Shown: positions 3,881 to 46,314, numbered from the stretch's first letter. The stretch is 64,000 nucleotides of DNA from Escherichia coli (GCF_003018235.1 NZ_CP027439.1); one strand, 5' to 3'. Notes: generated from the letters alone by a model not told the origin. Made by a program: numbers and translations.

Positions 3881-4936
3881 TTACGCCTTCAATGAGGCCA
3901 TATCGATCACAAAGCGATATTTTACATCACTCTTTAGCATCCGCTGCCAGGCCGTGTTAATATCCGAAATATTAATCAACTCAATATCAGACGTTATCTG
4001 ATGCTTTGCACAGAAATCGATCATTTCCTGTGTCTCCGCAATCCCACCAATGACCGAGCCAGCCACCGATTTTCGTCCTAAAATCAGCGGCGCGCTGTTC
4101 AGCATCGGATTCAAGTCTCCCAGATACCCCACAAGCACCAGTGTTCCGCTCAGCGCCAGCGTCGGAATATAGGGATTCAGATCATGCACATAAGGAACCG
4201 TATCGATAATCAAATCAAACTGGTTATGTGCTTCCTGCATCTGCTTTTCATCGGTTGAAATAACAATATGCGTGGCCCCCAGACGGCGAGCATCGGCCTC
4301 TTTGTTCGGCGAACGACTGAATAACGTGACTTCCGCACCCAGCGCTTTGGCTAATTTTATCGCCATATGCCCCAGACCACCCAACCCAACGACCACAACT
4401 TTGCTGCCCGGGCCAACATTCCAGTGACGAAGCTGTGACCAGGTGGTGATACCCGCGCACAGCAGCGGTGCTGCACCTTTTAAATCCAGCGTATCAGGTA
4501 CTTTGATAACGAATTTTTCGGTGACCACAATCTTGTCCGAATAGCCGCCATAGGTTGGCATATGGTCATGCCTGTCAATGTCGTTATAGGTTAAGGTATT
4601 GCCCTCTTCACAGTACTGCTCCAGCCCCTGCTCACAGGGCTTACAATGCTGGCAGGAGTCCACCATGCAACCTACACCGGCATAGTCGCCCACGCGGAAT
4701 TCGGTCACCGCCTTGCCAATCTGAGTCACTCGGCCAATGATTTCATGCCCCGGCACCATCGGATATTTTACACCGCCCCAGTCATTAAACGCATTGTGGA
4801 TGTCTGAGTGACAAACGCCGCTGTATAAAATCTCGATAACCACATCGTTATCGCGCGGATCGCGGCGAACAAAATTGTGTGGTACTAAATCCTCTTTCGC
4901 GGCAAAAGCGGCATAACCTTTCACATTTAAGGTCAT
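3881..4936 (-). CDS. Zn-dependent NAD(P) alcohol dehydrogenase (YahK/cinnamyl-ADH-like)
   Basis: GVCHSDIH zinc/catalytic motif and GLGGLGH cofactor motif. Start is taken at MTLNVKGYAAF; upstream in-frame ATGs exist. Confidence 0.85.
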   Translation of the reverse strand: MTLNVKGYAAFAAKEDLVPHNFVRRDPRDNDVVIEILYSGVCHSDIHNAFNDWGGVKYPMVPGHEIIGRVTQIGKAVTEFRVGDYAGVGCMVDSCQHCKPCEQGLEQYCEEGNTLTYNDIDRHDHMPTYGGYSDKIVVTEKFVIKVPDTLDLKGAAPLLCAGITTWSQLRHWNVGPGSKVVVVGLGGLGHMAIKLAKALGAEVTLFSRSPNKEADARRLGATHIVISTDEKQMQEAHNQFDLIIDTVPYVHDLNPYIPTLALSGTLVLVGYLGDLNPMLNSAPLILGRKSVAGSVIGGIAETQEMIDFCAKHQITSDIELINISDINTAWQRMLKSDVKYRFVIDMASLKA

Positions 4937-5511: not shown

Positions 5512-6306
5512 TCAATACAAACAACAAATTATGCTCTTAACGTACGTTTTCGTTCCATTGGCCCTCAGACCCCTCATACGGCTCTCGATGTATTCGTGGC
5601 AATCGGTTGGAATAGCAAAGGGTAACTGGTTATCCCGTAATGATTTGTCAAAATCGCCAGATGGGATCAGATAATCATCGAAATTCCTGTATCGGCGAGA
5701 TCCCTTTACCCAGATGTCACCTGAACGCAAGACTCCCTTCAGCTCATTCAGCACGCAAAATTCGTAATATTTTCGGTCAATGCCGGTGGGAGTGATCACC
5801 ACCTTTCTCCAGCTTTCCGGGATAAACCTGGTTGGCGCGGAAGGTGGTACTTTTCGGAGTTGTTTTCGATACATCTCTCTGACGGTATCAAGCGCGTCAC
5901 TGAGCTGCATTGCGGTAGGTGCAGCCCTGAACTGCAACGCGGACAGCATCCGGGGGGCGTATTTACGCAGCGTACTGTATTTTTCTGTGATTAGATGCAA
6001 CGGGTCGAAGTTGTCCTTACGTGACAGGAGCCGCGTCTCTTCCACACTGTTGATAAATTCCTGCCAGGGAAGGACGTCTTCTATTGCGGCCCAGGGATCT
6101 TCACCGGATTCTCTGGCATTAAGCAATGCCTGCCCGACGGTAACGTATTGCTTCAGCTTACTCTGAATCAGCTTTCCCGTTTGCTGGAGTCGTTCGGCCT
6201 GCGTGCGTTTTGCCCTGCTGAACAGACTGCCCAGAATACGCTCGTGCAGATCAATAACTTCGTCAGTCAGCGTTCTAATGATACTGACGATTAATATAAA
6301 TAACAT
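5512..6306 (-). mobile_element. tnpA: Tn3-family transposase (TnpA) internal remnant
   Basis: The 264-aa ORF matches the middle region of Tn3-family TnpA (…DRKYYEFCVLNELK…SGDIWV.GSRRY…). It has neither the N- nor the C-terminal part, and no Tn3 terminal inverted repeat is recognisable nearby. Confidence 0.7.
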
Positions 6307-6365
6307 AGCCCAGCCAGAAGGCTGGGCTAACAGGAAGGCAGACTATTCACGTGTAGATAGTCTGC

Positions 6366-7193
6366 TTATGGCCTGAGTTCCCCGTATTTATAAGAGGCCG
6401 TCACGCCGCCATCAATCAGAATGTCACTCCCGCTGATATACGTCCCGGCTGGCCCGAAAAGGAGTTCGGCTAATGCACCTATTTCATCCGGGGTTCCACC
6501 TCGTCCGGCTGGCGATTTTTCAAGCATATTCCTGTAAAACTCTCCACGCTCCGGACTCGTTAATTCGTCATAGGCCAGAGGGGTGAAAATAATCCCTGCA
6601 CTGATACAGTTAATGCGCGCTCCGCGTTTACCCCATTTCACGGCTTCCGCCATCACGCGCAGTGCGTTACCACGTTTGGATATTTGATAGGCGTAGAGGC
6701 TGTCATCAATTTCTTTAACGAACGGCAAATCCAGTAATGCCTCAGGTGTCAGCGTGGCTAATGCATCGGCCTGTGACTGGGTCAGGGCATCAACATTCAG
6801 ACGATGACTGGATTGTGAACCGATCACCACAGCGGAGCCTCCGGGGGCAATAACCTTACCAAATTCTTCAAATACGACAGCAGTCCCATATAAATCAACC
6901 CGAAGAATATCTTGGGCTTTGGCCTGTGAGGGGGAGAGCCCCGCTGTATGGATGACGCCTTTTATGTCCCCCAGCTCGGTGGCCGTGCGGACCAGGTTCT
7001 GGACTGACTGTCGGGAACTGACATCAACGACAGCGGTACTGATCGTAAAGCCTGCTTTTGACAGAATTTCTTCGGCTGACTGCGCACTTTCAGCCTTAAT
7101 ATCAGCCAGTAAAATATGCTTACCCACACTGACTCTGCGCGCAATCGCCTGCGCAATTGAGCCACTTCCAATGACCACAATGATCTCTTTCAT
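6366..7193 (-). CDS. Short-chain dehydrogenase/reductase (SDR), full length
   Basis: N-terminal VIGSGSIAQAIA Rossmann motif and a YxxxK catalytic motif (YAYQISK). Confidence 0.85.
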   Translation of the reverse strand: MKEIIVVIGSGSIAQAIARRVSVGKHILLADIKAESAQSAEEILSKAGFTISTAVVDVSSRQSVQNLVRTATELGDIKGVIHTAGLSPSQAKAQDILRVDLYGTAVVFEEFGKVIAPGGSAVVIGSQSSHRLNVDALTQSQADALATLTPEALLDLPFVKEIDDSLYAYQISKRGNALRVMAEAVKWGKRGARINCISAGIIFTPLAYDELTSPERGEFYRNMLEKSPAGRGGTPDEIGALAELLFGPAGTYISGSDILIDGGVTASYKYGELRP

Positions 7194-7259
7194 GCGATGT
7201 TCCTTATTGTCGGTGGATCAGTGCGGCCTGATTACAGGCCGCAATCTCACTGGTTGATA

Positions 7260-8408
7260 CTACAATGCGAGTTTAAGGATTGTGGTTAACACATCCGGGG
7301 TGTAGGTCTCAGCCAGCCCGAACCAGCGGGTATTCCCTTCCAGGTTTTCCAGGATACGGGGAAAGTCTGCCTCCGTTATTCCCAGTTGTGACAGACGAGT
7401 TGGGGTACCAATTTTATCAAACCATTTTTCAAGCGCCAGGATGCCTTGTTCAGCGGTTTTCAAACCGAACAGATGCTGCGCAAAACGCTCAAACTGAGAA
7501 GGATTCTGGCTGTGGTACCACTTCATCCATGCAGGCATTACAACGGATAACCCTGCACCATGGGGAACATTAAAGAGGGCTGACAGAGAATGCTCAATCA
7601 TGTGATTAGGGTAGCTGAATCCTGACGTTCCGGCATAGATCAGGCCATTAAGTGCCAGCGTTGCTGCCCATGCAAATTCCGCCCGGGCGTTGTAGTCGCC
7701 CGCATCTGCCAGCAACATTTCCGTCGTCTCCATGACCGTTGCGATAACCGATTCAACCAGACGTGACTGGATTTTCGGCTGCACCGCTGCTGTGAAATAA
7801 CCTTCAATGGAATGGGCGATAATGTCCGCTGCCGAATAGACAAGATAGTCCCGGGAGACCGTCTGCATCAGTGCCGGGTTCACAACGGAGACTTTCGGAA
7901 ACGTATGCACGGAATGCAGAGCAAATTTTTCCAGCGTGGCGTCATTGGTGACAACGGCACCACCGTTCATCTCACTGCCGGTCGCGGCAAGAGTCAGAAC
8001 AGAAAACACGGGTAAGGCAGCTTCGATTTGTCCTTTACCGATAAACAAATCCCAGACGTCGTTCTCATAAAGTGCGCCTGCCGCGACAGATTTCGCACTA
8101 TCCAGTACAGAACCGCCGCCCACGCTTAAAATGGCATCAACCTGGTGAGCACGCGCCAGCTGAATACCTTCTCTGACCTTAGAAATCAGCGGGTTGCTGA
8201 CTATCCCGCCAAACTCTACATACTGAATGCCGTGCTTTGTCAGGCTGTCGCTGATAGTGCTGAACAAACCATCTCGCTTGATGCGGTCACTGCCAAACGC
8301 CAGCAGAACTTTACTGACTTTCTGCTCTGCTAGGATCTGGCCGATCAGCTTTTCTTTGTCTGCACCAAATTCAATTCGGGTCGGGTTATAAAAACTGAAA
8401 TTATCCAT
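7260..8408 (-). CDS. Iron-containing (group III) alcohol dehydrogenase
   Basis: Fe-ADH family signature (GGGSVLD…, histidine-rich metal site). 382 aa. Confidence 0.85.
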   Translation of the reverse strand: MDNFSFYNPTRIEFGADKEKLIGQILAEQKVSKVLLAFGSDRIKRDGLFSTISDSLTKHGIQYVEFGGIVSNPLISKVREGIQLARAHQVDAILSVGGGSVLDSAKSVAAGALYENDVWDLFIGKGQIEAALPVFSVLTLAATGSEMNGGAVVTNDATLEKFALHSVHTFPKVSVVNPALMQTVSRDYLVYSAADIIAHSIEGYFTAAVQPKIQSRLVESVIATVMETTEMLLADAGDYNARAEFAWAATLALNGLIYAGTSGFSYPNHMIEHSLSALFNVPHGAGLSVVMPAWMKWYHSQNPSQFERFAQHLFGLKTAEQGILALEKWFDKIGTPTRLSQLGITEADFPRILENLEGNTRWFGLAETYTPDVLTTILKLAL

Positions 8409-13105: not shown

Positions 13106-13725
13106 GTGACATGTACGAAAACGCCCTTTGTGAAAACAAGACGGGATTCAGATTCATAACCCAGTCAGATATGTCTGCTCCTGACACTTAGCTGACTTTT
13201 AACGGGAGAACAGCCTGGCGGGCTTATATATACAGTTATCGCAATAATTTGCGTGATTTCCTGTGCTGGGGACAATAATCCGCTCAGCACAATAATCGTT
13301 CTTAATTAGTGCCCCTCATTCATCAATCCCTCTCATCTTCTCCGCAGATCCGAAAACCTCCAGAGTAGGATCTTGTCTCACCCTACCGGCGCTGCACACC
13401 ACGACAACACAAGATGTAGCGGCTCTGTCAACTGCCTTGGCTACCAGATGTTGTGTTTATCTCTTCGTTCTGTGAGGGGCGCTGCACGCCGGAAAACGGA
13501 GCTTTGCTCAGGGCGTAATCGTGCTACACTTCCGGAAAGTCGTGAATACGTGAAAAATCGGATCACCTGAAAACCGCCATCCGTTAATTTAATCCAGTGG
13601 TTATCAGGCTGCTAATTATCAGACAAAGAAAACATCATGGCAGGGAAAGTCCTGTGTGTGATAGTCAGGTGAGTTAGCGGTGGTGAGGTAATGATTGCGG
13701 TTTGTGATTATTTATTGGAAAAGGA

Positions 13726-14108: not shown

Positions 14109-15839
<1,731 letters not shown>

Positions 15840-16086: not shown

Positions 16087-16521
16087 ATGGAAAATATGAT
16101 GAAAACTATGCGTGAGTATTTCCCCACGCGAACAGTAGTGTTCGAACAGTCTCTGGATATGTTTGGTATCACCCGGGGTAAGGATGGGAAGCTCATATTT
16201 CCCCGTCATTCTGATAACCGTTTCCCGATCGGGCGTATCCGCAAACGTCTGGCAGCTTATGGCTGGCGCGGAGAACGTCTGAATCAGGAAGTAGCGCGTA
16301 TCGTCGCGGGTCCTGGTGTTCTTCCTGAAAGAAATGATTACAGCATATTTTTTCCTTACGGATGGGAACGTAACCAGCTTACCCCTGAGATGCGGAGAAT
16401 GTTTCCCCGGAAGACTGGTCGCCGCGTGCTGCTTATGCTGGATGAGCTCCATTATATTCATGACGCCGGGGAGCGTAAGTCGTTTTCACCAGAAAGTAAT
16501 GAAGCACCCGAGGTATCATGA
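16087..16521 (+). CDS. Hypothetical protein co-transcribed with the tyrosine recombinase (stop/start overlap ATGA)
   Basis: SD aggag upstream of ATG 16087. No recognisable domain. Translationally coupled to the recombinase. Confidence 0.55.
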   Translation: MENMMKTMREYFPTRTVVFEQSLDMFGITRGKDGKLIFPRHSDNRFPIGRIRKRLAAYGWRGERLNQEVARIVAGPGVLPERNDYSIFFPYGWERNQLTPEMRRMFPRKTGRRVLLMLDELHYIHDAGERKSFSPESNEAPEVS

Positions 16522-17300
16522 ATTACCCTTCTCTTCCCGGACAGGCCTACGCCCCGGAAAAAGTGCATCTACCTATGGCCATCGATTACCCGGCAGCGCT
16601 GGCCCTGCGTCAGATGGCAATCGTCCAGGACGAACTGCCGAAATACCTGCTGGCCCCGGAAGTGAGCGCCCTGCTGCATTATGTCCCCGATTTGCACCGC
16701 AAGATGCTGCTGGCCACGTTGTGGAATACCGGTGCGCGCATTAACGAAGCGCTGGCCCTGACCCGGAGTGATTTTTCGCTGGTGCCACCCTACCCGTTTG
16801 TGCAACTGGCCACGCTGAAACAGCGGGCGGAAAAAGCGGCCAGAACAGCAGGAAGAACGCCTGCCGGCAGCCAGGCGCATCGCTTGGTACCGCTGTCAGA
16901 TAAACAGTACGTCAGCCAGCTGGAGATGATGGTGGCCACGCTGAAAATTCCCCTCGAACGCAGGAATAAACGTACTGGCAGAACAGAGAAAGCACGCATC
17001 TGGGAAATTACCGACCGCACGGTCCGTACCTGGCTCAGCGAAGCGGTTGAAGCGGCAGCGGCTGACGGGGTGACGTTCTCCGTGCCGGTGACACCGCATA
17101 CATTCCGTCACAGCTATGCCATGCACATGTTGTACAACGGTATTCCGCTGAAAGTGCTGCAGAGCCTGATGGGACACAAGTCAGTCAGTTCGACAGAGGT
17201 GTACACGAAGGTGTTTGCACTGGACGTAGCTGCGCGACATCGGGTGCAGTTCCTGATGCCCAGTGATGATGCTGTGGCTATGCTCAGGGGAAACACCTAA
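16518..17300 (+). CDS. Small tyrosine site-specific recombinase (FimB/FimE-like, no N-terminal SAM-like domain)
   Basis: Catalytic-domain motifs: GARINEAL (first Arg), HTFRHSYAMHML (H-x-x-R), LMGHKSVSSTEVYTKV (catalytic Tyr). Only about 50 aa precede the catalytic domain. Confidence 0.85.
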   Translation: MNYPSLPGQAYAPEKVHLPMAIDYPAALALRQMAIVQDELPKYLLAPEVSALLHYVPDLHRKMLLATLWNTGARINEALALTRSDFSLVPPYPFVQLATLKQRAEKAARTAGRTPAGSQAHRLVPLSDKQYVSQLEMMVATLKIPLERRNKRTGRTEKARIWEITDRTVRTWLSEAVEAAAADGVTFSVPVTPHTFRHSYAMHMLYNGIPLKVLQSLMGHKSVSSTEVYTKVFALDVAARHRVQFLMPSDDAVAMLRGNT

Positions 17301-18339
17301 GTGGTAAAACAACTGAAGATTACTCCAGTGTGGTCACTTAGCGATTGAGGCTAAGTTCCAGAGTGGTGGCGTTCAGTTATACCCAAGTGTGACAGGCTGA
17401 CGCGCCCGTCGGGCTTGTCCAACCCTTCGCCTGCTCAGATCCAAGATCTGAACAGACTCACGGTTTGCGCGGTGGGTCAACAAAATTAAATACGATCACC
17501 AGAAATATTTTCTGGACACTTTTTCCGATAGTGCCGAATTGTCCAGGTTGGAAAGCATTTTTTGTGCGTTGTTGAAGGGCCGCGACGAGTGGAGCAAGGT
17601 GACAAAAATAATGCTGGACAGAAAAACCTGAACGTCCAATATGGGGAAAGGATTACGTGACGGGGCGGGTTTGCTAGCAGTTCTGCGAACGTACCAGCGC
17701 ATCGAGGACTGGTAATGCCAGCAGGCTATTACGTCCGGGCTGGAAAATCGAGAGTTGCGATGATGACGAGGCAAGGGGATCGCAGACATTAACCTCTGCA
17801 ATAGAATATCTATTGCGTGATTTATTATAAATGTTATCCCTTTATTGTTTTCCAATTATCCCCGCAGTTGAAGAAATCAGCACTGAATAAAATTTTCAAA
17901 ATTTTATTCATGATGCTTACAAATAAATTAATGTAGATGAATCATCGGGATAGACTATTCTACATCAACTGCATTCTTAATTTTACGTCAAAATCAAGCG
18001 TTGCACTAAAATAAATCCTTACTAGAATAGCTATCCAGAAGAATCACCATGTATTCTTCAGTCTGACCCTCGGGCGCAGATTCTTGTTGTATTAAAATAT
18101 TGGGAAAATAAATCAGGAGTGAAAATGCAGTGACAGAGACACGTTACACAACGTCTGAAAGCAAAAAAGCCCTGAATAATCAGAGCTTTATTACTGGATT
18201 GGAAATGACGGCCATCAAATCCAATTCAAAACACACCAAAGGCATGTCCTCAAGTGATGAAGATAATAGAAAACTATTCAATCTACGTCAACCGAATGCC
18301 TGCGGTAACAATCCCAAAGCCGTTATCGGAGGTACGATT

Positions 18340-18441
18340 ATGTTGCCATTGCTCAACACGTTCATGAATGCCCCTCTTCTGAGTCAGGGGGCTACTATCC
18401 TGTTTCTTGGGCTTCTTATCCTTGCGCTCAAGAACCAGTGA
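18340..18441 (+). CDS. Small hydrophobic peptide (33 aa, MLPLLNTFMNAPLLSQGATILFLGLLILALKNQ)
   Basis: SD ggagg lies 7 nt upstream of the ATG. Predicted single transmembrane helix. Followed by a hairpin terminator (agctggcttcggccagct). A longer GTG-initiated ORF (18130) in the same frame is an alternative. Confidence 0.4.
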   Translation: MLPLLNTFMNAPLLSQGATILFLGLLILALKNQ

Positions 18442-18601
18442 TCGCACTGAGCTGGCTTCGGCCAGCTTCTTTACTTGGATAGAATCACCTGAACGTCCAG
18501 TCGGGCGCTAATTTATAATAAATGACCGTAGAAGGGCCATTTCTACGGCAAAGTTCTGGAGATGATAAAATAAGGGCCTTAAACAATAAAAGGGCTTGCT
18601 T

Positions 18602-19003
18602 ATGACACTGGACCAACTGCTTGAAATCCACGACTGCGCTGGGCTGAGCACCTATGAACAGGAAACAATTATATCTTTCATTAACCAGCGGCGAGGTGAC
18701 TTTGGTGTAAAAGCGTTTCCGGAAATTATGCCTCCAGTATCTTGCGGCTGGATCTCCAGAAGAACAAAACAACGTTCTCAGGAGCAGGCAGACGAAAATA
18801 GCTGGAATTATTATAAACAGAAGATTCAGGAATGGATAACGCTAATCGAATTGCATGAGGCATCACTTACTAGGGGGGAAAAGCTAAAGCGCTTTGTGGG
18901 AAAGCATAAATGGTGGTTAGGAGGCACTTGCGCAGTTATCGCATCAATTACAAGCACTGTGATAGCTAGCTGGATTCTTTCGTTATGGACTTGGGCTAAC
19001 TGA
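18602..19003 (+). CDS. Hypothetical protein with C-terminal transmembrane anchor
   Basis: 134-aa ORF. The C-terminus WWLGGTCAVIASITSTVIASWILSLW is hydrophobic. The ORF is bounded by repeats R2 and R3. Confidence 0.45.
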   Translation: MTLDQLLEIHDCAGLSTYEQETIISFINQRRGDFGVKAFPEIMPPVSCGWISRRTKQRSQEQADENSWNYYKQKIQEWITLIELHEASLTRGEKLKRFVGKHKWWLGGTCAVIASITSTVIASWILSLWTWAN

Positions 19004-19339
19004 CGTGACAGAAGCTGCGTTACGTCCAAGTTGATAAAAAGTTGTTATCCACAGAGAACAGGGCGGTCATCCGGCGGGTTCAATAATATGATATTATTAC
19101 AGCACCTTAAAAAATAAGGATTGCGGACGGATGATATATTGATAAAGGATACTCATGCGTGTAAAACGCAAAATACCCTGAGTAATCAGGGTATTAAACG
19201 CGGAAAAGTAAAGGTTGAGCGCTTTACATTTTCCATTCACACCAGAGGCGTGACTAAATCTAAAATTGATTCTACGGCAACGTTCAATCTACGTCAAATC
19301 GCCAATGGTTTTCCTGTTATGAAAATTACCGGAGGCTTC

Positions 19340-19450
19340 ATGTTGTTAACCATCATCGACACCTATCTTCATGCTTCATTACTGACACAGATACTGGTAA
19401 TCCCGTTTATCTGTGCGGTGGTGTGGGCGGTAAAGAAAATCCGGGTATAA
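19340..19450 (+). CDS. Small hydrophobic peptide (36 aa, MLLTIIDTYLHASLLTQILVIPFICAVVWAVKKIRV), paralog of 18340..18441
   Basis: SD ggagg upstream. Shares the upstream motif ttcaatctacgtcaa with the first peptide gene. Followed by the hairpin catggctggctgagaggccagccatg. Confidence 0.4.
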   Translation: MLLTIIDTYLHASLLTQILVIPFICAVVWAVKKIRV

Positions 19451-19645
19451 CTTAAACATGGCTGGCTGAGAGGCCAGCCATGTTCAGTGAGTTTTGTTTC
19501 GAATGGACAGAATAACCTGAATGTCCAAGTTTGCAAGGAATTGTGATCGTACTACAACCAGTGTCAACCTTCCTATAATGCAGATAATCTTCTATAATTT
19601 CTTTTAATTCTGTGGCGATGTCATTAAGGAAAAGAGGTATTATTT

Positions 19646-19903
19646 ATGGGAAATAAACACATCAGCGCCAGTGAAGCTAAAAAGATTAGTTCTTCAGTGA
19701 TACCTGATGCAGACAAAACACTTGATATGATATTTGGAGGAATAAAGCTCCAAGCAAGATTGGGCCAGACATCCTTTATTTATCCTGTCCATGAAAACAT
19801 TCTTGAGCAAGTGGTCAAGGTTCTAAGGGAATCTGGTTATAGGATTAACTCATCGAAGGCTAATGAGAATAACAAATTTATTATTGAAATTAGCTGGCAG
19901 TGA
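19646..19903 (+). CDS. Hypothetical 85-aa protein
   Basis: SD aagagg lies about 8 nt upstream. Followed by the terminator hairpin aagccacccattagtgtggcttttttt. Bounded by repeats R4 and R5. Confidence 0.5.
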   Translation: MGNKHISASEAKKISSSVIPDADKTLDMIFGGIKLQARLGQTSFIYPVHENILEQVVKVLRESGYRINSSKANENNKFIIEISWQ

Positions 19904-19998
19904 AATAGAATCCGCTTTGTCTTTATTTTACCCTTGAAGCCACCCATTAGTGTGGCTTTTTTTGACAAGATTACCTGAATGTCCAGGTAACGCGGGGA

Positions 19999-20445
19999 TT
20001 AATGAGAAGAATAGGTAGTTGGTATATTTAGCTTGAGTCCAATCTCCTTTATGAGATTGTAGGTATTTTCCTTACTGTTGCCAGCAAGTATTGAGGTGAT
20101 CTCATTAAGGTTTTGTGCTGCACCAAGAACTTCACCCTTTGATGGTACAAACTTCATACCTAAATAGCTTCTTTTTAGGCTACCAGGCAAGGCTGCATAC
20201 TTTGCCATTAACTGAGAAGCAGCATCTTTCAAATCGTGGATGGTTTCATGATTAGCTCTGAAATTTGTGATCGTCGCTTGCTCACGTAATAAAAGCGCTG
20301 TAATCCTCCCTAATTGTTCTCTGAATGATATATAAGGCTCAATGAATCTTTTTGCGATGAGTTGACCAACAACAAAAACGGTTACGCCGGTCAGAACAGT
20401 TACGGCAGCAGACGAACTCATAATTGTACCTAGTGACTGAATCAT
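19999..20445 (-). CDS. Hypothetical membrane-anchored protein (N-terminal transmembrane helix)
   Basis: 148-aa ORF, the only minus-strand gene in the array. Lies between R5 and R6. Confidence 0.45.
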   Translation of the reverse strand: MIQSLGTIMSSSAAVTVLTGVTVFVVGQLIAKRFIEPYISFREQLGRITALLLREQATITNFRANHETIHDLKDAASQLMAKYAALPGSLKRSYLGMKFVPSKGEVLGAAQNLNEITSILAGNSKENTYNLIKEIGLKLNIPTTYSSH

Positions 20446-20562
20446 GGGGGTTATCCTATCTGGAGGGCAACAGCCTGTCTACTGTACAGAAAATGCTGTA
20501 TGTCCAGTCTGTGCTGGAATTATAATGGCAACCATGATCATCACAGGAAGAACGAGTAACAG

Positions 20563-21042
20563 ATGGCAACTGCGTGGGTGGATGTGGCTGATAATGCCGT
20601 AAAAATAGGTTTGGGGTCGTTGTTGACTATTTTAGGGGGGTGGCTGACTCTTAAGCTAACACAAAAGCACGAATTAAAAAAAGAAGCGGCAGTACAGGGA
20701 TTAAAAGATAAAGAAATAAAAACCAAACGATATGTGGAGTTTCTGACCTTGTCTCAATCTCTCATGCAAAAATATTTATATGAGCAGTGTGAAGCAAATA
20801 ACGATGATTATCTTGCCTATCTTCGCATACATAATGAGATAACGATCACGTCAGGTTTAGCCATAAGGAAAGCAGCATTTAAACTCCAGTTTGATGTTTC
20901 TACTTTCATTTTCTACAACAAAATACACGACACAGAACTCATTAATGCACTGAGGGATAAGGCTAGAAATTCTGTTTCCATGTTTCAGGCCATTGTGAAT
21001 GAGGAAATCTGCAACGGAAAGTTTGGCACAGCAAGCCAGTAG
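20563..21042 (+). CDS. Hypothetical membrane-anchored protein (N-terminal transmembrane helix)
   Basis: 159-aa ORF between R6 and R7. Divergent from the 19999..20445 gene. Confidence 0.45.
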   Translation: MATAWVDVADNAVKIGLGSLLTILGGWLTLKLTQKHELKKEAAVQGLKDKEIKTKRYVEFLTLSQSLMQKYLYEQCEANNDDYLAYLRIHNEITITSGLAIRKAAFKLQFDVSTFIFYNKIHDTELINALRDKARNSVSMFQAIVNEEICNGKFGTASQ

Positions 21043-21118
21043 CGCTGGGCAGAATAACCTGAATGTTTAACTGCCGGAGGAATTAACCGAGGGGCGTGAA
21101 AAGGCCGCTTACGCGGCC

Positions 21119-21229
21119 TCAGTTTTCTCTTGAACTCCTGAAGTCTATGTAGTCGATAAACTCAAGAATATAGTAGGCAATCACGCCTGTACCTACATAG
21201 ATAGCTCCGAATATCAGTGACTCACTCAT
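21119..21229 (-). CDS. Small hydrophobic peptide (36 aa, MSESLIFGAIYVGTGVIAYYILEFIDYIDFRSSREN)
   Basis: SD aggag lies about 9 nt upstream of the ATG on the minus strand. One predicted transmembrane segment. Followed by the hairpin ggccgcgtaagcggcc. Not in the supplied ORF track because it is shorter than 60 aa. Confidence 0.35.
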   Translation of the reverse strand: MSESLIFGAIYVGTGVIAYYILEFIDYIDFRSSREN

Positions 21230-21266
21230 TGAAGTGTACTCCTGAATAACACTCTATTGCACATAG

Positions 21267-21491
21267 CCGCAAGCCAGATCCCTCGCATCCAGTATAACCG
21301 GACTTACTCCACTGCAGTTTCAGAAACAACTACGTCTACAGGAAGCCAGACGATTGATGTTACGAGGTTCAGATGCCAGTATTGCCGGGTACAACGTTGG
21401 ATATGAAAGCACAAGTCAGTTCTCCCGGGAATATAGACGTTACTTCGGCTATCCCCCCAAAAAGGACATTGCACGATTACGCGAAACATAA
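21267..21491 (+). pseudogene. AraC-family regulator C-terminal HTH fragment (remnant)
   Basis: [19 protein letters not shown]…[26 protein letters not shown] matches the second HTH of AraC/XylS regulators. It lacks a start codon and an N-terminal domain. Confidence 0.55.
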
Positions 21492-21653
21492 ACATCTTTG
21501 ACATTCGCGACGTCCGACCAGCCGAACAGGATAGAACACCCTGAACATCTCGGCTGACTGTGCTTTCATTTTTAGTCGGTTAAGCAGACGCTTTTCTGTA
21601 ATTTCTTTCAGTTCAATGTAGCTGATACTTAACTTTTTGAAATAACTAATATT

Positions 21654-22189: not shown

Positions 22190-22415
22190 AGGGCACCTTT
22201 AGAGACTATTTAACAGGTCTTTATAGTGTTCTAAAAAAGACCTCTTAACAAGTCTTTTTGTCATTTTACTCAATGTGCCGTAAAGCCCCGCCCTTCAGGG
22301 CGAGGAGGATGTCAAATAATAGGACCCCGAAAGGATTAGTAATGTGGCGTCTTTGCTACACAGGTGCTTTTGTAATATGTTGTATAGCGTACTCACTACA
22401 CAGGAGATGTGTATG

Positions 22416-22952
22416 GCATTGTCACAGATCAGCGTTCGTATTGATGATGAACTCAAACAACGCACGGATGAAAAAATGAAACTGCTGAGAACCAACCCCA
22501 CGCAGGCCATTACGTTGCTCTATCAGTATATTGCTGAAAATGGGAAACTTCCCTTTACTGTCAGCACCCAACTCTTCACTTCAGAGGATTACACCCAAAA
22601 ATTAATCACCACAGTCAGATCTATTTATGAATACTGGCGCGCGCTTTCTGAGACATCAGCAACAACCAGAACGAAAAGTGGAATGGCCTATTCAATGGCA
22701 ATGGCAGCACATGTTTCGAAGCTGCACAGCGATCTGATACACAACTGCGGCACCTTGAGTGGTGAAGAAGTTGCCTCATTAATGATTGTTATGGAGGACA
22801 TTCTTTCTACGCCGCCATCTTTTTATCGCGGAGAAGCGCCCGATCAGGTGTTTCAGGATAAATTAAACGCTGCTGACCAAACTATTCTGATGATTGAAAA
22901 ATGTCATGGTATGAATGTTCAACGCGGGGAAAATTTTTACGCTCTCAGATGA
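22416..22952 (+). CDS. DinJ/RelB-like ribbon-helix-helix domain fused to a ~110-aa C-terminal domain of unknown function
   Basis: N-terminus MALSQISVRIDDELKQRTDEKMKLL resembles DinJ. No cognate YafQ/RelE gene is adjacent. SD aggag upstream. Confidence 0.6.
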   Translation, partial: ALSQISVRIDDELKQRTDEKMKLLRTNPTQAITLLYQYIAENGKLPFTVSTQLFTSEDYTQKLITTVRSIYEYWRALSETSATTRTKSGMAYSMAMAAHVSKLHSDLIHNCGTLSGEEVASLMIVMEDILSTPPSFYRGEAPDQVFQDKLNAADQTILMIEKCHGMNVQRGENFYALR

Positions 22953-45599: not shown

Positions 45600-46314
45600 T
45601 ACAGCAATAATATTCGGCGGCCTGTTTTTTTCCTGCAGCGTGATGGCCGGAGCCGGTACGCTGGCACCCACCGTGGTGCCAATGGTGAACGGTGGTCAGG
45701 CCAGTATTGCCATCAGCAATACCAGCCCGAATCTGTTTACCGTTCCCGGTGACCGGATTATCGCCGTGAACAGTCTGGATGGTGCCCTGACCAGTAATGA
45801 GCAGACCGCCTCCGGCGGTGTGGTGGTTGCCACCGTCAACAAAAAGCCCTTTACGTTCATTCTGGAAACAGAACGTGGTCTGAATCTTTCCATTCAGGCC
45901 GTTCCCCGTGAAGGCGCGGGGCGTACCATTCAGCTGGTCAGTGACCTGCGCGGAACCGGAGAAGAAGCCGGTACGTGGGAAACGTCCACGCCTTACGAAT
46001 CCCTGCTTGTGACCATCAGCCAGGCCGTCCGTGGCGGAAAATTACCCGCAGGCTGGTATCAGGTCCCGGTGACAAAGGAAACCCTGCAGGCCCCGGCGGG
46101 GCTGTCTTCAGTGGCAGATGCCGTATGGACGGGGAATCACCTGAAGATGGTCCGCTTTGCCGTGGAAAATAAAACGCTGTCTGCCCTGAATATCCGGGAA
46201 AGTGACTTCTGGCAGCCGGGAACCCGTGCCGTGATGTTCAGCCAGCCTGCCAGCCAGTTACTGGCAGGTGCGCGCATGGATGTGTATGTCATCCGTGACG
46301 GGGAGGGCAACTGA
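45586..46314 (+). CDS. traK: TraK (secretin-like)
   Basis: 242 aa with a signal peptide. Order matches F. Confidence 0.85.

Follow-up and report, generated by a model that had tools for sequence, protein, structure and literature searches.

A 64,000-nucleotide stretch of Escherichia coli DNA (NZ_CP027439.1), referred to throughout as the window, carries a tyrosine recombinase gene, resD (16518..17300, + strand), and downstream of it an array of short direct repeats that bound small genes. The repeat is a 24-bp element, TGGACAGAA-tNACCT-GwAyGTCCA, which occurs between 17615 and 21551 as six strong and two weak copies, all co-oriented. The initial annotation of this DNA had counted eight same-orientation copies spaced 460-860 bp apart; both statements were borne out, as consecutive copies lie 458-861 bp from one another and none is expected by chance. 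A search of the 64-kb window with the pattern GGACAGAATAACCTGAAYGTCCAR, allowing at most three mismatches, gave matches at 17616, 18477, 19505 and 21047, all on the + strand, against 0 matches in 100 shuffles. Further copies at 19963, 20483 and 21529 came from a repeat search, and a diverged copy at 19005 from direct reading of the sequence. When scored in bits with a position weight matrix derived from a set of 160 distinct sites, the six strong copies range from 26 to 41, and the two weak ones (19005 and 21528) share their register and orientation. Elsewhere in the window the matrix found a single extra match scoring at least 8, at 45836, and an earlier version of the matrix yielded 0 matches of at least 14 in 0.45 Mb of shuffled DNA.

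The information content of the site is restricted to positions 1-24, with position 11 free. Comparison of the copies shows two imperfect 9-bp inverted arms (TGGACA plus three nucleotides) flanking an asymmetric 6-bp spacer, and because the spacer is asymmetric the site has a direction. Judged on its sequence, this layout has the 9-6-9 architecture of a duplex tyrosine-recombinase core site. An inverted repeat had been recognised earlier in the core as GGAC-N14-GTCC; the inverted repeat is present, but the true inverted hexamers are TGGACA-N12-TGTCCA. The element matches none of rfsF, attC, dif or sfx, in line with the earlier view that it lies outside the described repeat families, and an Rfam search returned nothing relevant to the repeat, leaving an RNA-element reading without support.

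The recombinase is a 260-amino-acid (aa) protein with a Pfam Phage_integrase domain. It is 86% identical over 252 aa to the D protein (ResD) of the F plasmid, and on this identity it is ResD, the orthologue of that protein. The "FimB-like" label that it first received could not be upheld: against curated models of XerC, XerD, integron integrases and Fim-type invertases, the protein scores far under the cut-offs. A 144-aa open reading frame (ORF; 16087..16521, +) overlaps the start of resD by four bases, so that the two-gene arrangement is as originally described. Its product falls into phrog_26837 (function unknown) and has no match in Pfam, NCBIfam or PDB. The ORF adjoins resD in this plasmid lineage only, and a role as accessory factor or conserved partner was rejected, since it is not kept beside resD elsewhere.

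The published site of ResD, rfsF, has the form AGATCCGNAA-N8-TTNCGGATCT and is the type of site used in multimer resolution and replicon fusion by this enzyme (PMC8299605). An rfsF-like site, AGATCCGAAAACCTCCAGAGTAGGATCT (13346..13373, +), differs from the published pattern at three positions and is the sole rfsF match in the window. The usual position of rfsF in a species-level sample is 1-2.2 kb upstream of F-type resD; here the distance is 3.2 kb because an IS3-family element (14618-15831) has inserted, and one ORF also lies between the site and the resD operon. Identity of the 24-bp repeat with rfsF was rejected, as the published pattern does not match the 24-mers. The two sites nevertheless have a crossover core in common, AA|NNACC. 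Within the rfsF consensus at F-type loci (AGATCCGnAA-nnnCCnnn-TTnCGGATCT), ACCT stands at the array-site offset in 6 of 36 sites, against a random expectation of 0.8%. As a motif, the shared core ties the array site to the ResD family as a whole and not to a particular member.

Between resD and the first site lies a conserved leader (17478..17547, +), which reads AAATTAAATACGATCACCAGAAATATTTTC-TGGACA(17513-17518)-N21-TGTCCA(17540-17545)-GG. Its consensus, cTGGACAyTTTTTCCGATAGTGCCGnnnTGTCCAGG, is common to F-type loci and to loci with an IncX-type paralogue of ResD, and is located between the gene and the first site in both. The leader hexamers are those of the cassette sites, set 21 nucleotides (nt) apart instead of 12, which is one helical turn more. 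By analogy with attI, the leader may be an accessory or regulatory binding element. The geometry resD-(~80 bp)-leader-(~65 bp)-first site is kept in Citrobacter, Hafnia, Klebsiella and metagenome loci whose ResDs are 86-92% identical to that of the window; the window leader lies 223 bp after resD because a 109-bp conserved non-coding block (17378..17486) has been inserted between the two. The leader is present in 1,049 of 72,556 PLSDB plasmids, 853 of them conjugative, with Klebsiella (431), Escherichia (327), Salmonella (103), Enterobacter (82) and Citrobacter (62) as hosts.

Two separate observations concern this platform region. The 109-bp block is 91% identical to a block located just upstream of parA in pSLT-like Salmonella plasmids (L003, 4001-4109), and it is matched in many plasmids without annotation. 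The F plasmid (NC_002483) has a platform relic, TGGACAGAACAACCTAATGAACACA, at 3970-3993, about 300 bp after resD, with a perfect left arm and spacer (TGGACAGAA CAACCT), a degenerate right arm and no conserved leader.

The array itself opens with site 1 (17615..17638, TGGACAGAA.AAACCT.GAACGTCCA, matrix score 37.9), whose left arm is part of the platform; all sites, and all cassettes unless stated otherwise, are on the + strand. Cassette 1 (17624..18484) is a type-I-toxin-like module that encodes a 33-aa hydrophobic peptide (18340-18441) ahead of a terminator (18449-18468) and has, on the opposite strand, a promoter-like site (18291-18263) and a terminator-like site (18189-18166); it is also found at other array positions in two further loci (L135 and L181). 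Site 2 (18476..18499, TGGATAGAA.TCACCT.GAACGTCCA, 34.9) is the point at which homology with IncX plasmids starts. Cassette 2 (18485..19013) encodes a 135-aa protein (18596-19003) with a C-terminal membrane anchor and is followed by the degenerate site 3 (19005..19028, GTGACAGAA.GCTGCG.TTACGTCCA, 10.7). Cassette 3 (19014..19512) is a paralogue of cassette 1, with a 36-aa peptide (19340-19450) and, on the − strand, a promoter-like site (19297-19269) and a terminator-like site (19195-19172). Cassettes 2 and 3 move jointly, as block 18476-19528, in IncX plasmids.

Site 4 (19504..19527, TGGACAGAA.TAACCT.GAATGTCCA, 40.6) equals the consensus and precedes cassette 4 (19513..19970), which encodes an 85-aa protein (19646-19903). 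Between site 5 (19962..19985, TTGACAAGA.TTACCT.GAATGTCCA, 26.2) and site 6 (20483..20506, TGTACAGAA.AATGCT.GTATGTCCA, 27.3) lies cassette 5 (19971..20491, − strand), with a 148-aa membrane-anchored protein (19999-20445). Cassette 6 (20492..21054) encodes a 159-aa membrane-anchored protein (20563-21042) from a diversified family often met with in such arrays, and ends at site 7 (21046..21069, TGGGCAGAA.TAACCT.GAATGTTTA, 29.9), whose right arm belongs to a recurrent ...TGTCTAACTG class. One small ORF per interval had been reported, and this is roughly correct up to this point; the last interval departs from it and consists of a mini-cassette of about 230 bp plus debris. The mini-cassette (cassette 7; 21055..21303, − strand) encodes a 36-aa hydrophobic peptide (21119-21229), is of a type common in other arrays and contains a bidirectional terminator (21102-21119). 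It finishes with the common cassette end CCAGATCC...CCAGTATAAC, after which a relic half-site, CGGACTTACTCC, marks a destroyed site at about 21304. The debris beyond it includes an AraC fragment (21354-21491), and the degenerate terminal site 8 (21528..21551, AGGATAGAA.CACCCT.GAACATCTC, 7.8), preceded by ccagccgaac, closes the array.

The two paralogous hydrophobic peptides of about 35 aa noted at the outset are thus those of cassettes 1 and 3. In both, a strong promoter-like site on the opposite strand (10/12 matches) and, about 75-100 nt later, a terminator-like hairpin lie upstream of the peptide, antisense to the 5′ part of its mRNA. With this arrangement the units could specify the antisense RNAs of type I toxin-antitoxin modules. 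A DinQ-like identity of the window peptides was not confirmed by NCBIfam or PHROGs, and it is the architecture alone that suggests type I toxins. Cassettes 2, 5 and 6 encode membrane-anchored proteins. Across all arrays analysed, the largest cassette proteins include AbiD/Abi_2, members of the DpnII/MboI-type nuclease family, a Shedu SduA-like protein, PD-Lambda-2_B and PDC-S15 candidates, PemK/MazF toxins and RelB antitoxins, together with proteins bearing FRG, DUF2971, T5orf172 and DUF4145 domains.

The longest ORF runs in the + direction in 54 cassette families and in the − direction in 68. Promoter- and terminator-like sites occur inside the cassettes, and many sites are preceded by terminators, as had been noticed at the unit boundaries of the window. 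Given ORFs in both directions and terminators before many sites, the units appear to be self-expressing, unlike typical integron cassettes. A scan for promoter-like sequences showed no enrichment (8 versus 10.7 expected), and none was located in the leader or overlapping a site.

Mini-cassettes also provide a side observation on cassette ends. Many cassettes start with GGnnGCGGGGAATTAAACGAGGGGCGTAAAAAAGGC... 8-12 nt after the site (for example, 21081-21100), running into a bidirectional terminator, and the same cassettes end in CCAGATCYCGC-N4-CCAGCAGAAC. These cassettes probably constitute one large mini-cassette family with reverse-oriented peptides of about 36 aa; alternatively, the GGnnGCGGGGAATTAAACGAGGGGCGTAAAAAAGGC/CCAGCAGAAC ends may represent an extended recombination site.

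The evolutionary mobility of the units became evident from plasmid comparison. The entire block is found in no PLSDB plasmid and in no complete E. coli genome, and pieces of it occur in hundreds of plasmids with their ends inside sites. Window positions 19511-21066 are 99.3% identical to the IncX1 plasmid p573-5, and positions 18476-19528 are 98.9% identical to the IncX1 plasmid pVE-V11-M_3; outside these shared blocks both plasmids are unrelated to the window. A precise deletion is seen in pDEC5B-4, whose ResD protein is identical to that of the window and which lacks cassettes 1-3. In its joint, aataatgc-TGGACAGAA-TAACCTGAATGTCCA-agtttgca, the left flank and left arm come from site 1, whereas the spacer, the right arm and the flank beyond it come from site 4, the partner of site 1 in this event. 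Contigs with an identical ResD occur in two array states, either full or with the three-cassette deletion. One apparent cassette replacement, in pKp_SB612_4, was rejected as a case because the replaced segment lacks bounding sites.

To this pairwise evidence we added a survey of loci, assembled from one genome per species scanned with an alignment of ResD-family proteins (L008-L087) and from a metagenome scan seeded with a strict site pattern (L088-L187). The survey comprised 94 arrays with 225 cassettes in 134 families. Sites within each locus are all co-oriented, with up to eight per contig, and are separated by a median of about 600 bp (interquartile range, about 400-950 bp), mostly with one gene per interval. 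Among the 29 families present in at least two loci, 15 have at least two different neighbours, and both relative orders were seen for three family pairs. Window cassettes, differently combined, turn up in eight or more further arrays (including L135, L181, L089, L088, L004, L005 and L091). An array is also present in the pKpQIL-like plasmid L198 (NZ_CP103551.1), a 113.6-kb IncFII/IncFIB plasmid of Klebsiella pneumoniae, in which positions 6174-7800 contain resD, the leader and two mini-cassettes bounded by three sites. Comparison of related plasmids thus shows that cassettes are gained, lost and shuffled, with differences in their number, content and order between sites that stay fixed. One identical gene order is not what related plasmids carry, because cassettes recur with different neighbours and in different orders.

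To locate the point of exchange, we grouped 275 distinct site contexts by left-flank and right-flank family and asked how well each grouping predicts the base at every position. At positions 1-9 the base tracks the left flank (normalised linkage 0.7-1.0) and for the most part shows no link to the right one, positions 3-4 being exceptions (0.65 and 0.49). Positions 10, 12-18 and 20-24 track the right flank (0.8-1.0), and positions 11 and 19 are labile. The switch in linkage therefore falls between site positions 9 and 10, a single fixed crossover position. This comparative result fits a 9-6-9 core that is symmetric about TGGACA/TGTCCA, with a predicted top-strand exchange at TGGACAGAA^T. Homologous exchange does not fit a switch at 9|10, as its crossovers would scatter over identical stretches. 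Moreover, differing spacers always stay with the right-hand partner, from which we infer a single strand exchange completed by replication.

Comparison further shows the arrays to be polar with respect to a ResD-family gene. In site-selected metagenome contigs that have such a gene, it stands at the upstream end of the array in 23 of 24, and in recombinase-selected loci with sites the array starts within 450 bp of the gene in five of six. Three arrangements can be distinguished. F-type ResD genes are co-directional with the array, usually at about 170-410 bp from the first site; the distances observed span 30-407 bp, and one contig has 1,567 bp. The IncX-type paralogue, 46% identical to the window ResD and full length in pO177B1 (NZ_CP024616, 1228-2118), is divergent and lies 265-426 bp from the array. 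In the IncR-like type, a ResD homologue of about 50% identity is located 2.8-3 kb from the sites, with repB in between. In a neighbour-joining tree, whose sample was partly enriched by site-based selection, a divergent array accompanies 10/10 members of the IncX-type clade, plus the distant outlier L150; no rfsF occurs within 4 kb in that clade. IncX4-like plasmids have the recombinase gene with a single site.

The IncR-like arrangement was also noted in its own right. In six loci (L177, L098, L110, L148, L164 and L178), two sites about 370 bp apart lie between a relE-type toxin-antitoxin pair and parAB, and no rfsF pattern (at most three mismatches) was found within 4 kb of resD. A conserved plasmid structure, xerC-mcr-10.1-orf336-orf177, resembles a recombinase followed by small units (PMC9431528). 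A clade of 50%-identical ResDs, at first suspected to represent this mcr-10 "xerC" locus, proved to be an IncR-like backbone (resD, repB, relE, two sites, parAB) and not mcr-10, so that this route to membership was rejected.

Taken together, varying order, exchange at one position and polarity to a ResD-family gene make it likely that the 17.5-21.6 kb region is an integron-type array in which cassettes follow a platform, but with a recombinase family and a site other than those of integrons. The integron-like cassette array, or other array of recombinase-targeted sites, that the initial annotation had put forward is thereby supported, having withstood all of the comparative tests applied. As a broader and more tentative proposal, to which we give a little less than even credence, enterobacterial plasmids (F-like, IncX and pKpQIL-type KPC plasmids) would possess a second, integron-independent capture system, in which ResD-family recombinases move self-expressed cassettes at 24-bp sites beside a leader.

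The chemistry, the circular intermediate and the acting enzyme of such a system are what we infer from these comparisons. A cassette unit itself begins with the spacer and right arm (tNACCT-GwAyGTCCA) and ends with the left arm TGGACAGAA. The left arm is strongly conserved, and a recombinase sitting on it would cut and exchange the top strand at TGGACAGAA^TN. Two direct sites that recombine in this way would release a circle of one or more cassettes carrying one complete site, and in the reverse reaction the circle would insert into a site on any site-bearing plasmid. The reaction probably stops after one strand exchange, with replication resolving the junction, as in integron and XerC-only reactions. 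Candidates for the acting enzyme are the adjacent F-type ResD or an IncX-type ResD paralogue supplied in trans.

Several observations weigh against the reading as a platform-plus-cassette array. The F-type ResD already has a cognate site in rfsF, with outer arms (AGATCCG) unlike TGGACA. Arrays are missing from most F-type resD loci, with a leader or an array in only about 5 of 27 in the species-level sample, and array-positive F-type ResDs form no clade of their own, being scattered among array-less ones. In IncX1 plasmids, arrays with as many as nine sites persist next to a mere recombinase-gene remnant. The L198-type array of pKpQIL plasmids is identical in 393 PLSDB plasmids, so that turnover is slow on epidemiological time scales. 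At the level of the site, left-flank linkage at positions 10-19 is nonzero (0.2-0.7), and identical adjacent spacers are weakly depleted (12 observed versus 18.8 expected, P ~0.04), a depletion too weak for spacer heterology to be retained as an array stabiliser. Finally, the sample is partly biased, as the metagenome loci were seeded by a strict site pattern.

Part of this evidence would be accommodated if the sites are real but the F-type ResD is unrelated to them and serves only in multimer resolution at rfsF. The window array would then be passive, comparable to CALIN in lacking an enzyme of its own, and would either depend in trans on an IncX-type paralogue encoded by a co-resident plasmid or go unmobilised. 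IncX-type recombinases always adjoin an array and lack rfsF within 4 kb, F-type ResDs have rfsF upstream and a patchy association with arrays, and the outer arms of the two sites differ. Cassette exchange between IncX and IncF at 99% identity and the persistence of IncX1 arrays without a recombinase gene in cis point the same way. Such a separation must, however, contend with the resD-leader-first-site geometry kept in loci with 86-92% identical ResDs, with the AA|NNACC core common to rfsF and the array site, and with the precise site-to-site deletion on a ResD plasmid backbone; we regard it as rather unlikely, yet deserving of real weight. If the sites were instead ordinary ResD-like multimer-resolution sites, the arrays would be scars of replicon fusions and deletions. 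Replicon fusion and resolution are known activities of ResD/rfsF, for which a contribution to plasmid mosaicism has been proposed, and the single site beside the recombinase gene in IncX4-like plasmids would be in keeping with this view. Yet the units are small (median ~600 bp) and mostly of one gene, a given unit is found again between other neighbours, on the left as well as on the right, and in other orders, and both unit ends are bounded at the same exchange position, which fusion and random deletion would not yield; this origin is improbable.

A regulatory function, with the 24-mer as an operator for a KorB-like ParB or a promoter or terminator signal and mosaicism produced by occasional homologous recombination, was likewise considered, having been raised initially in the form of a shared promoter, operator or terminator-adjacent element. 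The location of sites at unit boundaries, often right after terminators, is compatible with it, as are the proximity of the array to parAB, the two sites just upstream of parA in IncR-like loci and the KorB domain of the window ParB. It leaves the breakpoints unexplained, however: exchange is confined to 9|10 and not spread over identical stretches, and the site-to-site identity blocks of 5-9 bp are below the length required for RecA-dependent exchange. IncX plasmids share the sites but use a different type of partition system (ParA/ParG), the polarity of the arrays goes with a tyrosine recombinase gene, and the promoter-like scan and the Rfam search lent nothing to it, so that we judge a regulatory element distinctly improbable. 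Least credible of all would be an assignment to Xer, with dif/cer-like sites and Xer-dependent modules like the pdif modules of Acinetobacter. The site is near dif in size (24 versus 28 bp, both with a 6-bp spacer) and some copies have a left arm in ...ATAA, but the right arm is unlike the XerD arm of dif/cer, TTATGTTAAAT. In addition, all sites are direct, in contrast to the sites of alternating orientation around pdif modules, a dedicated recombinase gene accompanies the arrays, and the recombinases are far below the XerC/XerD cut-offs.

Compared with known systems, a platform-plus-cassette array of this kind is functionally closest to the integron, though the defining IntI and folded attC sites are absent. 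Both have a tyrosine recombinase gene at the fixed end of a co-oriented site array, after a platform-specific region, and both contain small, mostly one-gene cassettes of several hundred bp with a single fixed exchange point that generates hybrid junction sites. In both, cassettes occur in different orders and replicons, some arrays (CALIN in the case of integrons) are without a recombinase gene in cis, and the content is rich in toxin-antitoxin and anti-phage genes.

The differences from integrons begin with the recombinase, which belongs to the ResD family and not to IntI: against the integron integrase model TIGR02249 (cut-off 265 bits) the window ResD scores 63.1 and the IncX-type recombinase 54.7 bits, and against PRK15417 (cut-off 435) the scores are 49 and 39 bits. 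Sites of the attC type are imperfect palindromes of 57-141 bp with R and L boxes and a GTTRRRY core, and they are recombined as folded single strands. The sites described here are 24-bp duplex-type core sites without attC-like folding or a GTTRRRY core. Their predicted single-stranded folds have energies of -2.3 to -4.7 kcal/mol and z-scores of +0.05 to -2.2, with inconsistent structures, and attC-like folding was rejected on these weak and inconsistent folds. Most of the site is at the recombinase-proximal end of the cassette, not at the distal end. Integron cassettes are mostly promoterless, co-oriented and expressed from the platform promoter Pc, whereas the cassettes here have their own promoters and terminators and run in both directions, and no Pc-like promoter was seen in the leader.

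The remaining comparisons are with systems that share particular components. ResD/rfsF has in common an orthologous recombinase (86%), a short core site with inverted arms, the AA|NNACC core and the rfsF-like copy at 13346. It differs in that rfsF is a 10-8-10 site with AGATCCG arms that normally occurs once per replicon, compared with eight direct 9-6-9 copies with TGGACA arms that bound genes. The pdif modules likewise comprise small toxin-antitoxin or accessory modules between short tyrosine-recombinase sites in varied plasmid contexts; they depend on host XerCD and alternating sites, whereas the arrays have a dedicated plasmid recombinase family and direct sites of unrelated sequence. The shufflon (Rci/sfx) similarly combines a plasmid tyrosine recombinase with multiple short asymmetric sites, but sfx sites are inverted and invert pilV segments, in contrast to the direct sites, separate genes and other sequence found here.

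A full-text literature search, from whose coverage subscription journals were largely absent, returned only papers on ResD/rfsF resolution and replicon fusion and on ordinary integrons, and none on such a site or array; the array system is apparently undescribed so far. To our knowledge, the capture and reordering of promoter-independent gene cassettes is well established for integrons alone, with pdif modules as a looser parallel. A second cassette platform, if confirmed, would change how regions of "hypothetical genes" are read in clinically important and well-studied plasmids, and would explain one source of fine-scale plasmid mosaicism. It would also offer a route for single-gene defence and addiction modules between incompatibility groups, and would assign the classical F-type resolvase ResD a second, unrecognised job. 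The compact 24-bp site and small recombinase make a concrete prediction, namely, strand exchange at TGGACAGAA^T.

Two genes outside the array complete the description of the region. Just past it, a 202-aa protein (22344-22952) combines a RelB/DinJ-type N-terminal domain with a long C-terminal extension; no site adjacent to this gene was detected in the window, and members of its family (MATINARIDD...) are found as cassettes within other arrays. Upstream of resD, the ORF at 14109-14597 (162 aa) is apparently truncated by the IS3-family insertion, and relatives without the insertion sequence at this place (L189 and L192-L195) have a 217-aa protein in the same position.

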